Source: an uncultured Hyphomicrobiales bacterium
Lineage (GTDB): Bacteria > Bacteroidota > Ignavibacteria > Kapaibacteriales > UBA2268
Direction: 5' to 3'
Assembly: GCA_964524325.1 (NCBI GenBank)
Contig: CAZGCT010000005.1
Span: forward strand, 61,592-125,591
Length of the DNA stretch: 64,000 bases
Made by a program: the position numbers and the translations under genes. The notes under the pieces were generated by a model. It was not told the DNA's origin. It saw only the letters and a list, made by a program, of their open reading frames with translations, and ran no database searches. Positions 19,638 through 56,746 of this stretch are shown in pieces (positions within the stretch are counted from its first letter, which is position 1; every line of letters begins with the position of its first letter).

Positions 19638-19658
19638 GCTTCGAATAATATTCGAAGC
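19638..19658. promoter_or_regulatory. Perfect 10-1-10 inverted repeat upstream of greA
   Basis: GCTTCGAATA-A-TATTCGAAGC, no flanking U-tract; function unknown. Confidence 0.35.
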
Positions 19659-33931: not shown

Positions 33932-33960
33932 CAAGGGGCTCAAGCAAGCCCCTTGTTTTT
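33932..33960 (+). terminator. Intrinsic terminator of the glgA operon
   Basis: CAAGGGGCT-CAAGCA-AGCCCCTTG followed by TTTTT. Confidence 0.85.
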
Positions 33961-46205: not shown

Positions 46206-46239
46206 AAAAAAGAAGGGGGAATTTCCCCCTTGTTTTTTT
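46206..46239. terminator. Bidirectional intrinsic terminator between E2 and the tricorn gene
   Basis: AAAAAAG-AAGGGGGAA-T-TTCCCCCTT-GTTTTTTT. Confidence 0.85.
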
Positions 46240-53538: not shown

Positions 53539-54021
53539 TCAGAGCTGTTGCGAGTTCAGTTTGTCTAGAATTTTTTTCAAAGTAGTGCTGGTAGATTTTC
53601 CTTCGATATATGGTATAACAACAACTTTGCCGCCGTTGTTTGCAACATAATCGGCACCGACAATAGTTTCGGGTTTGTAATCTCCACCTTTCACAAGAAT
53701 GTCAGGTTTTACGGACATAATTAAGTTCAAAGGAGTATCATCTTCGAAAATAACAACAAAGTCCACAGGTTTAAGTGAATCTAGAATTACTGCCCTTTCA
53801 TTTTGAGGGTAAATAGGTCTGGTTTCTCCTTTGAGTCTTTGAACAGATTCGTCGCTATTAAGCCCAACGACTAAAATATCCCCAAGATTTTTTGCTTGAA
53901 TAAGGTAGTTGATATGCCCAATGTGTAAAATGTCGAAACAACCATTAGTAAAAACTATTTTTTTGCCCGCATTTCGAAGGTTTAGGCAAATGGTTTTTAT
54001 TTCATCCATTGTAACTATCAT
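53539..54021 (-). CDS. rfaE2: D-glycero-beta-D-manno-heptose 1-phosphate adenylyltransferase
   Basis: [22 protein letters not shown] and LVKGGDY motifs; start set at ATG 54021 (ATGA overlap). Confidence 0.93.
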
Positions 54022-55025
54022 AGGTCTTTGATTGTGGTATTGTTTTTCCGAATAGTTTCGAGCAATTTTTCGATTGTAATAGGAACCACACCGGGGTATT
54101 CGCAAACGGTTCCAGCTGCATAATTAGCAAGGGTTGCAGCCTCTTTCATAGTTGCACCAGTGGAGTAAACGGCTGCAAAAGTGGCAATTGTGGTGTCCCC
54201 TGCACCCGATACATCGGCAACTTTGCGAGCTCGTGTTGGCACAAAAGATACTTCGCTTTCGGATTCGAAAAGTGCCATACCATCGGCCCCAAGAGTAATA
54301 AGAACTGCTTTGGTATTCAACCTTTGCAAAAGCATAATACCAGATTGGATAATCTGGTCCTTTGTTTTGATATTAAAATTTAAGGCTTGCTGTGCTTCTT
54401 TACGGTTTGGCTTGAAAACAGTTGTGTTCTGATATTCGAAAAAGTTTTCAAATTTTGGGTCGACAAATGTAGGAATATCTTTTTCGTTTGCAAGTGAAAC
54501 AAGCCTGTGAATCAATTTGCCGGTGATTGTACCCTTATTGTAATCTTGGAAAATAATACCATCTAAGTCTTTTTCGTTGGCTATCTGCTGAATGATGAAT
54601 TTAGTAGCTTCTTCGGAAATTGGTTCCCGAACTTCTCGGTCGACACGGACAACGTGTTGGTTGTTTGCAATAATTCTTGTTTTAACGGTGGTTGGTCGGA
54701 GTGGGTCGGTGAAGACTCCAGAAATGTCGATGCCACTATTTTTAGCAATGTTAATGAACAAATTTCCGCTGTTATCTTTTCCAATTACACCGCAGAGTAT
54801 GGGAGTAACCCCAAGATTAAGCAAATTGTTTGCAACATTTGAAGCGCCACCAAGATGAGCGGTTTCTTCTTCAAGTTCTACAACTGGTACAGGAGCCTCG
54901 GGAGAAATTCTATTGACAGAACCCCAGAAAAAACGGTCGATCATGATATCGCCCACTACTGCTACCTTTTTCCCTTTGCATTTGGAAAGTAAATACTTTG
55001 CTCTTTCAAGATCAACTTCTAGCAT
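54018..55025 (-). CDS. rfaE1: D-glycero-beta-D-manno-heptose-7-phosphate kinase (PfkB fold)
   Basis: [25 protein letters not shown] and DVSGAGDT motifs; start set at ATG 55025. Confidence 0.93.
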
Positions 55026-55326
55026 AATTAATTTTGATTGTAAAAAAAATAAAAGACGAAGATATTTTAATGTTGTTATTATCATTTGATTTTATTTTCG
55101 AGCAAAAGTTGGCAGAATTGTTGCTTGGTTATGAATTTAAAATATTACAAGTATTCTAATTTATTAGTCATTGTAAAGAAAAATTAAATTACAAATGAAC
55201 TAACTAGCTGGGGGAAAACCACAAAAATTTAGTATTTAATTTAAAGTGAAGTGTATCTATTTTTGCGTCGTTGTCAAAGGTTATTTACAAGTTGAAATTT
55301 TTATAACTCAAACATGTCAAGCAATT

Positions 55327-55611
55327 TCAATCTTTGTTGATCCTTTTTTCCCTAAACAATTTCTTAATAAATTGTTCAGTGACACCAAGTTCACTCGCGA
55401 TTAGTTTGAATGGCTTATTGGAATTTTCTTTAATGTAACGTAGAATAAATTTTTCCAACCTAGCTATTTTAGGAACGTAGATAGACATACCTGCACAGGA
55501 GCGCAACAAAAGCCTAACTGTTTCGACGCCGCAAGCATGTGCAATTAATTTCAAATCGTCAGTTAGGTCTTCCAATTGAACTTTTGCGAAGATGTCGTTT
55601 TGTTTTTCCAT
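55327..55611 (-). CDS. Mor/C-family (phage Mu middle-operon regulator-like) transcription activator
   Basis: LIAHACGVETVRLLL-x-CAGMSIYVPK matches Mor GGGQVYIPR; C-terminal HTH IASELGVTEQFIKK resembles Mor YGVTFNTVYK; 94 aa. Confidence 0.75.
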   Translation of the reverse strand: MEKQNDIFAKVQLEDLTDDLKLIAHACGVETVRLLLRSCAGMSIYVPKIARLEKFILRYIKENSNKPFKLIASELGVTEQFIKKLFREKRINKD

Positions 55612-55638
55612 TTTAATTTACTTTTTCAACAAAAATTT

Positions 55639-55698
55639 CTTATTTTTGTTTTTGTAAGAAATACATAAATTTTATGTATTTCTTACTACAAAAATAAG
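55639..55698. promoter_or_regulatory. 60-bp imperfect inverted repeat with a perfect 16-1-16 core; candidate operator carrying two face-to-face TAnnTTTG boxes
   Basis: CTTATTTTTG-TTTTT-GTAAGAAATACATAAA-T-TTTATGTATTTCTTAC-TA-CAAAAATAAG. Confidence 0.8.
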
Positions 55699-55719
55699 TA
55701 GATTTTGCATAATAAAAAA

Positions 55720-56193
55720 ATGAAAAATTTAAATAAGGAAATTGGTGAAAGAATTCGTTTTGTAAGGTCGATTTTCAACGAGGGGGCAAAACTTTCCGCT
55801 TCTCAATTTGCTCATCTTTTAGGCGAAACTATGCACAAAATTTTGAATTATGAGTTGGGAAGGGCTCAAGTTCCACCATCGTTTTTAGTGGCATTATACC
55901 GCAAGGGAATTAATCCAATTTTCATACTTACGGGCGAAGGAGATTTATTTGCTCCTAACAAGTATGGATTTGAATTGAAACAAAAGCTAGGAGAACATTT
56001 AAAGAAAGAAGGAAAAGAAAAATTTAATATTGATTCCGATGTAGAAAGTCATTTTAAAAATTCAAATGATTTTAGCCAGATAGAAAATTTTTCGGAAAAA
56101 AATATTAAGGAGCTGATTGAACTTGCTCGGCAGTACACAGCTGTTGCCGGTGATATTATGGAAATAATAAAAAGTCGGGGTCAACATGAATGA
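55720..56193 (+). CDS. XRE/CI-type HTH transcriptional regulator with no peptidase domain
   Basis: IGERIRFVR...SASQFAHLLG...ILNYELGR..P and GINPIFILTGEGDLF, the usual end of a phage-repressor N-domain; start set at ATG 55720. Confidence 0.82.
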   Translation: MKNLNKEIGERIRFVRSIFNEGAKLSASQFAHLLGETMHKILNYELGRAQVPPSFLVALYRKGINPIFILTGEGDLFAPNKYGFELKQKLGEHLKKEGKEKFNIDSDVESHFKNSNDFSQIENFSEKNIKELIELARQYTAVAGDIMEIIKSRGQHE

Positions 56194-56746
56194 AGATGAA
56201 AGGAAAAAATTAATTAAGCAGGTAGAAAGAGAAATTCTTTTTGCTCATTTGCATGGGAAGCTTCCGCCTAATTTTGATAAGACCTTAGCTATTTTGAAAA
56301 GTATGAATATTGATCCAGACGAGTTGCTCGATAATGCTTTCTACAAGTTCGATCTGCTTTCTACATTATGCAAAGGTGGGGATGTAGAGCCCCTGCTGCA
56401 AAGAGACTTTGATTTTACTAAATTTAACATATTCGATATTGCTACTCAAAATAAATCTAACAATATTCAAACAAATCACTTAATTTCTTTTACAGTAAAC
56501 GGGGATTCGATGGTCGGTTTAGGCATAAAAGATGGTGATGTTGTGATTGCTGAAGAAGATGATTTTGAGTCTGGTTCGATTTATGTTGTCAGGTTCGACG
56601 ACACTTATTTCATAAAACAAGTTAAGAAATCTGAAAATGGGTACCTACTTATTTCTGCAAATCCGAAGTACGAAAGTGTTGAAATAAGAGAAAACCTGGG
56701 CTTGGAAATAATTGGAAAAGTGAAGTATATTGTGAAAAAAATTTAA
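56186..56746 (+). CDS. S24-family (LexA/CI/UmuD-type) Ser-Lys peptidase with no recognisable HTH
   Basis: VNGDSM (Ser108), IKDGDVVI, FIKQV (Lys144), LISANPKY and IIGKV motifs; 8-bp overlap with the HTH gene, GGGG RBS. Confidence 0.88.
   Translation: MNEDERKKLIKQVEREILFAHLHGKLPPNFDKTLAILKSMNIDPDELLDNAFYKFDLLSTLCKGGDVEPLLQRDFDFTKFNIFDIATQNKSNNIQTNHLISFTVNGDSMVGLGIKDGDVVIAEEDDFESGSIYVVRFDDTYFIKQVKKSENGYLLISANPKYESVEIRENLGLEIIGKVKYIVKKI

Follow-up and report, generated by a model that had tools for sequence, protein, structure and literature searches.

The nearest described counterparts of the locus reported here are phage immunity switches, repressor-protease pairs and LexA-type repressors of bacteria, and one restriction-modification region. 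The locus lies in a 64,000-nt stretch of contig CAZGCT010000005.1 (assembly GCA_964524325.1), from an uncultured member of the Kapaibacteriales; this whole stretch is called the window below, and all positions refer to it. Its centre is a strongly AT-rich intergenic region (55612-55719, 108 nt, GC about 0.29) between a Mor-like regulator gene, read leftwards, and two genes read rightwards that encode a helix-turn-helix (HTH) protein and an S24 peptidase. We call the three genes and their control region the module:

55327..55611, minus strand: Mor-like regulator gene, 94 aa, with a C-terminal HTH; predicted leftward target of the control region.
55720..56193, plus strand: gene of the cI/c2-type HTH repressor candidate, 157 aa, with an N-terminal domain, a disordered linker and a C-terminal Ala143-Gly144.
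56186..56746, plus strand: S24 peptidase gene, 186 aa, with a three-helix N-terminal bundle and a core resembling the LexA C-terminal domain (CTD) and UmuD' (Ser108, Lys144).

The length of the intergenic region is counted to ATG 55720, a start of the HTH gene that is backed by all orthologs and homologs, whereas a mechanical list of open reading frames (ORFs) had given TTG 55705. The HTH and S24 genes overlap by 8 bp in different frames.

Lambdoid immunity regions (lambda OR, P22 OR) share with this module a cI/c2-type HTH protein, three phased operators of about 17 bp between divergent regulator genes, an Ala-Gly cleavage motif and, if our predictions hold, autoregulation of the repressor. 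They differ in their promoters, which stand back-to-back in lambdoid phages and face-to-face here; moreover, the module repressor has no S24 domain of its own, its partner is Mor-like and not Cro-like, and the module does not lie in a prophage. Repressors without a protease domain are known from DdrO/IrrE (PprI), ImmR/ImmA and CapH/CapP, where cleavage is performed by a separately encoded metallopeptidase of the COG2856 type; in DdrO, the cleavage site is near the C-terminus. The module would resemble these pairs in leaving the inactivation of an XRE-type repressor to a neighbouring protease gene, but its partner is an S24 serine peptidase, and the motif in the putative substrate is the Ala-Gly of LexA and cI.

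Convergent, face-to-face promoters occur in the switches of phages P2 (Pe/Pc) and 186 (pR/pL) (PMC1904263, PMC3675496, PMC7498355). There, too, the overlap is short, regulator sites lie within and around it and a regulator gene stands on each side. Unlike the module, these are phage switches, P2 C and 186 CI are not linked to an S24 peptidase, and the predicted starts of the module are only about 31 bp apart. The non-canonical LexA of Bacteroidetes (COG2932) combines a cI-like HTH with an S24 domain and has dyads CTAA-N5-TTAG and GGA-N5-TCC in its own promoter (PMC8565304). It shares with the module its place in the Fibrobacteres-Chlorobi-Bacteroidetes (FCB) group, the cI-like XRE HTH, the S24 chemistry with Ala-Gly and a Ser-Lys dyad, and the 4-N5-4 geometry of the dyads. 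These LexA proteins are however single polypeptides controlling SOS genes, whereas the module splits the functions over two genes and uses the motif TGTA-N5-TACA, with no sites outside the module in the ~496 kb scanned. Finally, the Ecl18kI restriction-modification region has divergent genes, facing promoters and one intergenic operator (PMC2760811); its regulator is the methyltransferase itself, its operator is single and its biology is unrelated.

We propose that the intergenic region is an autoregulatory switch between the Mor-like gene and the HTH-S24 operon, in which a rightward (P_R) and a leftward (P_L) promoter face each other and are governed by three evenly spaced operator units, O1, O2 and O3. 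As a whole, we consider this reading reasonably probable. A sequence-only reading of the window had described the region as a 60-bp inverted repeat, with face-to-face promoters around one perfect 33-bp operator that a single repressor could use to shut both genes; it is partly supported by what follows. The palindrome itself is there, read directly from the window sequence as GTAAGAAATACATAAA-T-TTTATGTATTTCTTAC:

55654..55686, no strand: perfect 33-bp palindrome, containing most of O1 and O2; its arms are conserved and its central 5 nt are free in orthologs.

With 16 nt, these perfect arms are the longest in the window, the runner-up having 10 nt. In 40 Markov-1 simulations at window composition the longest arm measured 8-12 nt, and 64 kb of intergenic-like sequence at 20% GC produced a 16-nt arm in 1 of 40 runs. 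The half-sites GTAAGAAATACATAAA and TAAGAAATAC have no second good match within the window, and no further half-sites or operator units rise above chance level there.

To place the region among its relatives, 58 loci were fetched, 33 from genomes and 25 from metagenomes (L001 is the contig of the window itself). The close set comprises 14 distinct intergenic regions that are colinear with the window and whose HTH proteins are 50-70% identical to its own; the distant set comprises 27 distinct regions, with DNA-binding domains 50-60% identical. The HTH homologs come from metagenome-assembled genomes of Kapaibacteriota, Ignavibacteria and Chloroherpeton-like bacteria, and the exact window protein is also encoded on metagenome contig GCA_900098825.1. 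Mor-like and HTH genes are paired, almost always divergently, in nearly all loci with sufficient flank. The gene immediately 3' of the HTH gene encodes an S24 protein in all close relatives and in a dozen or so distant loci.

All 14 close regions keep the palindrome, as nearly invariant arms of about 14 nt, GTAAGAAATACATA and TATGTATTTCTTAC, around a free 5-nt centre (AATTT, TTTTT, TCTTT, AGTTT, ACTTT, ATTTT or GATTT). The arms are thus under purifying selection, as the sequence-only reading had supposed from their intact symmetry, but the perfect 16+1+16 form is found in the window copy only, among the orthologs compared. Each of 17 fetched loci of differing genomic context contains a single copy of the motif AAGAAATACATA-N5-TATGTATTTCTT, always at the same position, and the contigs of IMG/VR contain none. 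That the palindrome is an accident of a very AT-rich region, a terminator or a relic of some mobile element is therefore next to impossible: orthologous conservation refutes it, no terminator was called, the element sits between divergent genes, and simulations rarely give 16-nt arms. A phage or mobile origin of the module was likewise ruled out, since INPHARED holds no relatives of the HTH or Mor-like protein, IMG/VR holds none of the HTH family, and the flanks, which vary by lineage, are housekeeping genes and not prophage. Among curated names, PADLOC gave no match and NCBIfam no equivalog.

On each side of the palindrome stands a box matching TAnnTTTG, the -7 element of Bacteroidota-type sigma-A promoters, with an orientation towards the gene that it would serve:

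55641..55648, plus strand: -7 box of P_R, TATTTTTG (TAnnTTTG); predicted +1 at about 55653-55654.
55689..55696, minus strand: -7 box of P_L, TATTTTTG (CAAAAATA on the plus strand); predicted +1 at about 55684 (A).

In Flavobacterium, the sigma-A -7 box covers positions -12 to -5 (PMC9723704). This rule places the starts at about 55653 (+) and 55684 (-), so that both would fall at or inside the core, close to where they had been anticipated. The predicted transcripts overlap by ~32 nt and have 5' untranslated regions (UTRs) of 67 and 73 nt. Both boxes are invariant in 14 of 14 orthologous regions (TA..TTTG at left, CAAAA.TA at right), while the nn positions and the flanks vary and the offsets of 5 and 2 nt from the core are retained. 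We read no alternative consensus box in the intergenic region that would give back-to-back promoters, and no sigma-70-type promoter or terminator is predicted at the palindrome. Use of this box in the lineage is consistent with the RpoD and promoters of Chlorobi (green sulfur bacteria), which are Bacteroidetes-like (bioRxiv 10.1101/172254). In 155 upstream regions of the clade, TAnnTTTG is found 79 times in sense and 47 times in antisense orientation, against ~16 per strand estimated from base composition; within the window, its intergenic density is 2.3 times its coding density.

The same boxes account for the outer arms of the supposed 60-bp inverted repeat, CTTATTTTTG at 55639-55648 and CAAAAATAAG at 55689-55698. 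Although ungapped extension of the palindrome gives 81% complementarity across 32-nt arms, the outer arms sit asymmetrically, 5 nt from the core at left and 2 nt at right, and the 60 nt therefore do not form one continuous inverted repeat. They resemble one another because each holds a TAnnTTTG box, and the variable positions of the box are unpaired in 6-10 of 14 orthologs by a formal pair count. To judge from this pattern, the outer arms are two independently conserved -7 boxes rather than a maintained inverted repeat.

The core can in turn be resolved into smaller units. In more distant loci, single palindromes of the form TTATGTA-N5-TACATAA precede the HTH gene. A position weight matrix (PWM) trained on distant loci only was scanned over 63,984 window positions, and returned the following units in the control region:

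55651..55667: O1, TT-TGTA-AGAAA-TACA-TA; rank 1 of 63,984, 13.5 bits; covers about -3 to +15 of P_R.
55673..55689: O2, TA-TGTA-TTTCT-TACT-AC; rank 25, 4.1 bits; covers about -5 to +12 of P_L.
55695..55711: O3, TA-AGTA-GATTT-TGCA-TA; rank 2 of 63,984, 11.4 bits; on the TA of the P_L -7 box and the spacer.

Successive units are spaced by exactly 22 bp. O1 is found at an identical offset in 14 of 14 orthologs; O3, whose position falls outside the coordinates of the sequence-only reading, scores at least 3 bits at its offset in 12 of 14, with a perfect TATGTAATAATTACATA in L040. Across the 14 orthologs, PWM matches are confined to offsets -38, -16 and +6, bar one that overlaps the start codon and is probably explained by coding conservation.

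That match is present in the window at 55719-55735 (AATGAAAAATTTAAATA; 8.8 bits, rank 5), on the HTH start codon and 24 bp from O3, and it recurs in orthologs.

The long palindrome arises because O1 and O2 repeat one asymmetric unit in opposite orientations. The 33-bp element thus most likely represents two repressor-binding sites out of three set at even distances. Distant regions share the arrangement of boxes and units: the leftward -7 box directly adjoins a TGTA-N5-TACA unit in 24 of 27, rightward boxes stand at a distance of 34-48 nt on its left, and the 13 relaxed units found in addition are all placed at +/-22 or -44 bp. The whole family therefore has the face-to-face layout and the position of O3 in common, and the 33-bp palindrome, O1 plus O2, would be an elaboration of the close group.

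A different reading keeps the whole palindrome as one operator, as first proposed, with half-sites of 14-16 nt (GTAAGAAATACATA) on which a single symmetric dimer or tetramer shuts both promoters, O3 being separate or irrelevant. It draws on the constancy of all 14 nt per arm, AGAAA included, in 13 of 14 orthologs, and on pair 5, which changes symmetrically in L040 from G-C to A-T. The matrix built from distant loci alone nevertheless finds 17-bp units at O1, O3 and, more weakly, O2 with exact 22-bp phasing; distant relatives use single 17-bp TGTA-N5-TACA palindromes and 22-bp arrays; and about 17 bp, rather than 33, is the span of HTH dimers like those of c2 and 434. We hold the single operator to be unlikely. 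What endures of that proposal is a conserved site, which more probably consists of two 17-bp units of a three-unit, 22-bp array.

The constancy of the spacer within the arms could reflect indirect readout, the context of the start sites, a second protein or a longer half-site of 14 nt. Indirect readout occurs with the P22 c2 and 434 repressors. In the window, the invariant spacers are AGAAA at 55656-55660 and TTTCT at 55680-55684. A separate attempt to tie the unit type, CGTA (L014, L034, L047) or TGTA, to the recognition helix was rejected, as helix 3 is the same in both; the sole change seen, IFNEG to IANEG in L014 and L047, is too thin to use.

The array appears specific to the module. In about 0.5 Mb of related sequence, every strong operator site belongs to the module, with no wider regulon. 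In numbers, ~496 kb (window plus loci) contain 64 strong sites in module intergenic regions and 4 elsewhere, and these four, of which L020 has two at a distance of 22 bp, all lie just upstream of the Mor-like gene where the locus is rearranged. As to an SOS-type regulon, with operators upstream of DNA-repair genes, the 64-kb window and ~430 kb of flanks (~8-16 kb per genome) show no strong site outside the module. On these predictions the circuit looks local, with the Mor-like gene always under operator control.

An entirely different function is suggested by RNA folding. Both predicted 5' UTRs begin with a hairpin of 13-15 bp, as had been expected of the two transcripts, with minimum free energies of -16 and -16.8 kcal/mol, and among 200 shuffled sequences none was as stable (z = -5.6 and -5.2). 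The palindrome could accordingly act through 5' hairpins, or through antisense pairing of the 32-nt complementary 5' ends, and not be a protein operator at all. The covariation check proposed in the sequence-only reading does not favour an RNA hairpin: the score in orthologs, 0.059, equals the shuffle mean of 0.059 (221/500), and changes in the arms are mostly one-sided and pair-breaking. A hairpin also leaves unexplained O3 and the distant units, which are short dyads at a fixed distance from the -7 box, and the best Rfam match reaches only 19 bits (E=0.16) against a gathering score of 94. Conservation without compensation and dyads at fixed distances from the -7 boxes favour a protein-binding array and make a purely RNA-level function improbable, though an RNA effect could exist alongside that of the operators.

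The likely binder of the TGTA/TACA dyads is the HTH protein. In its AlphaFold2 (AF2) model, a five-helix N-terminal domain with a predicted local distance difference test (pLDDT) score of about 90 is followed by a linker disordered at 105-124 and a C-terminal helix of low confidence. The top Foldseek match of the N-terminal domain is that of P22 c2 on its operator (TMt 0.81-0.84, root-mean-square deviation (rmsd) 1.4 A), followed by the 434 repressor, C-proteins and the N-terminal domain of CapH. Helices 2 and 3 contain the invariant residues Q29, F30, I41, N43, Y44, E45 and R48, of which I41, N43, Y44 and E45 belong to helix 3. When the HTH profile and the Mor-like protein were compared by sequence with solved structures, only marginal matches came up.

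The second candidate is the Mor-like protein. It scores 14.4 bits against Pfam Mor (PF08765), below the cut-off of 24.9 (E=0.039); for this reason we call the gene only Mor-like. It matches PHROG 836, 'late transcriptional activator', with E=5.5e-5, and its orthologs bear the NCBI name Mor family and a precomputed PF08765 match. With a C-terminal HTH of its own, this protein might bind the sites alone, or compete for them with the HTH protein in the manner of cI and Cro; operator units upstream of the Mor-like gene in rearranged L020, L054 and L026 fit this idea, and the conservation of AGAAA could reflect such a second protein. Repression of the Mor-like gene would account for the rearranged sites just as well, however, and it is the c2-like fold and invariant recognition-helix residues of the HTH protein that match TGTA/TACA dyads. 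The Mor activator of phage Mu binds upstream of the promoter that it serves and not over transcription starts. Binding by the Mor-like protein is in our view somewhat less likely even than the single operator.

Taken together, the switch would work as follows. Two Bacteroidota-type sigma-A promoters fire towards each other across the 108-nt region; the rightward unit would be a two-gene operon of HTH repressor and S24 peptidase, the leftward one the Mor-like gene. Within or beside the predicted transcript overlap lie three 17-bp units of the form TA-TGTA-N5-TACA-TA, 22 bp or two helical turns apart, with O1 on the P_R start, O2 on the P_L start and O3 on the -7 box and spacer of P_L. Dimers of the cI/c2-like HTH protein would occupy these units from one side of the helix, probably with cooperativity, and so shut P_L, and with it the Mor-like gene, while autoregulating P_R. 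For the unstudied lineage of Kapaibacteriota and Ignavibacteria, this provides a testable map of two conserved Bacteroidota-type promoters, three phased operators and a candidate repressor.

Several observations weigh against this switch. In the window copy, the -33 elements of the promoters are weak: TTG is missing 16-23 nt upstream of either box, and with it a -33 element (TTTG) at 17-23 nt, much as the sequence-only reading had called these boxes approximate. In the orthologs, a -33 TTG stands 19-20 nt upstream for P_L in 12 of 14 and 16-23 nt upstream for P_R in 6 of 14. O2 is weak in the window, at 4.1 bits, with TACT as its outer half; most orthologs have TACA there and score 8-14 bits. 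The AGAAA spacer within O1 and O2 stays the same in 13 of 14 orthologs, although N5 is free in O3 and in distant units, and this suits a longer half-site of 14 nt or a second binding protein no less than indirect readout. Lastly, the Mor-like protein co-occurs with the sites everywhere, and phylogenetic profiling cannot separate the two candidate binders.

How the repressor might be released is suggested by its neighbour. The S24 protein matches Pfam Peptidase_S24 with E=2e-19, over profile positions 30-115 only, and aligns to residues 113-178 of LexA. Its S108 (in GDSM) and K144 (in FIKQV) are invariant and aligned with S119 and K156 of LexA; the AF2 model (pLDDT 85.6) matches LexA CTD and UmuD' structures at an rmsd of 1.3-2.1 A. 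It contains no conserved Ala-Gly upstream of the core, the residue before Gly being M, S, I or G. The Ala-Gly is found instead at the C-terminus of the HTH protein, in a motif (V/A/L)-A-A-G or A-V-A-G: A143-G144 (codons at 56146-56151) does not vary among 30 homologs, and 48 of the 50 distinct HTH proteins of the loci carry the motif, independently of linker length.

A profile search of 1.84 billion proteins showed that the HTH family is mainly stand-alone, with 115-165 aa. The same search returned a fused relative of 243 aa, P0120, with HTH_19 and Peptidase_S24 domains. Its residues 1-128 align with the window HTH protein (E=1e-15), so that its IAAGEP falls on AVAGDI, and the catalytic half corresponds to the window S24 protein (E=4e-6). 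By these alignments, the HTH and S24 genes are colinear with one cI-type repressor, apparently broken between cleavage site and catalytic core. Of the features of LexA and cI, the putative scissile Ala-Gly is on the HTH protein and the Ser-Lys dyad in the S24 fold, but not on a single polypeptide: the two-gene state holds in 12 of 12 close genome loci. The pair is also neither a LexA nor a UmuD equivalog, since the scores are below the cut-offs (TIGR00498 lexA, 38.6 bits against 110.95; PRK10276 (UmuD), 47.6 against 110). A programmed frameshift joining the two genes was considered and ruled out by the junction, which varies among orthologs from small overlaps to gaps. In the literature searched, we found no description of a split HTH/S24 repressor, or of LexA in Kapabacteria.

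The colinearity of HTH (Ala-Gly) and S24 (Ser/Lys) proteins with fused P0120 leads us to a more speculative step, derepression by cleavage of the repressor at Ala143-Gly144, with the co-transcribed S24 protein acting in trans. Such a cut would remove the last 14 residues and leave an Ala C-terminus like that of the LexA N-terminal fragment; it may thereby expose a LexA-like ...VA or ...AA end. In LexA, the ...VAA end is a ClpX signal. Extended in this way, the module would be a two-polypeptide descendant of cI/LexA that serves as a chromosomal stress switch, with S24 trans-cleavage and a Mor-like output through the three-operator, face-to-face array. We put this forward tentatively, as a possibility well short of even. 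Its scope may cover Kapaibacteriota, Ignavibacteria and Chloroherpeton-like bacteria, with DNA damage possibly as the signal; the repressor may have kept only its DNA-binding domain and Ala-Gly, with the S24 subunit adjacent in about half of the lineages.

Three findings speak against cleavage in trans. The S24 protein retains a vestigial loop, G65...P69, which might insert into the active-site cleft of the protein itself. As many as 24 of the 50 HTH proteins have no adjacent S24 gene, and 23 of these 24 keep the AAG motif; either the protease is encoded elsewhere, or the motif has another role. And AF2 places the AAG motif in a low-confidence helix.

The HTH proteins of loci without an adjacent S24 gene (L013, L015, L017-L021, L023, L026-L029, L062 and others) end in ...(V/A)AAG(K/D/N)(I/M).... 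In P0099, P0089 and P0094, Lys/Glu-rich linkers of 60-110 aa separate the HTH domain from the VAAG motif, and P0099 carries an extra Lys-rich tail of 80 aa beyond it. At L010:4467-5016, the S24 gene is in two frames (134 aa, then a second tblastn match), owing to a frameshift or an assembly error.

Most of the interest of the module lies in the split S24 repressor together with the promoter and operator map. If cleavage occurs, the self-cleavage of LexA and cI would be separable into a substrate repressor and an S24 enzyme, in parallel to DdrO/IrrE and ImmR/ImmA; a dedicated S24 subunit that cleaves in trans would wire the classical protease-repressor pair in a new way, adding to the story of the phage-derived 'non-canonical LexA' in Bacteroidetes. 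Without cleavage, what is left is a clean and conserved autoregulatory operator array of an ordinary kind.

A second palindrome, AACAAAAAT-TTCTT-ATTTTTGTT at 55628-55650, has 9-nt arms, overlaps the rightward -7 box and adds a further hairpin to the leftward 5' UTR as predicted. It was dropped as a part of the system, being partly kept only in the closest relatives and lost in others. Other notable palindromes of the window lie at 19638-19658, 33932-33955 and 46213-46231; their sequences are GCTTCGAATAATATTCGAAGC (10-nt arms), and the GC-rich CAAGGGGCT...AGCCCCTTG and AAGGGGGAATTTCCCCCTT.

In the window, the module is flanked by genes for an rfaE-like kinase and an enoyl-CoA hydratase. The rfaE/HldE-like halves at 53539-55085, a PfkB kinase and a cytidylyltransferase, are separate genes; their longest ORFs overlap, the gene call gives an overlap of 4 nt, and the pair adjoins the module in several close relatives. 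Two assemblies whose HTH proteins are identical and whose genes are otherwise in the same order, L060 (4101-5932) and L061, differ by an inserted restriction-modification pair, N6_N4_Mtase and a HinfI-type endonuclease, a few genes from the module. In one distant lineage (L062:8637-16399), the module adjoins genes for a superfamily-1 helicase, RecJ, a Ham1-like NTPase and an SMC_N/AAA_23 (RecN-like) protein; this DNA-repair neighbourhood is suggestive, as one case only. Distant loci also contain an extra ORF of ~97 aa between the operator region and the Mor-like gene, without Pfam or PHROG match (L062:7564-7857, minus strand; equivalent gaps of 340-520 nt in L013-L033). There, the leftward promoter would drive a two-gene operon.

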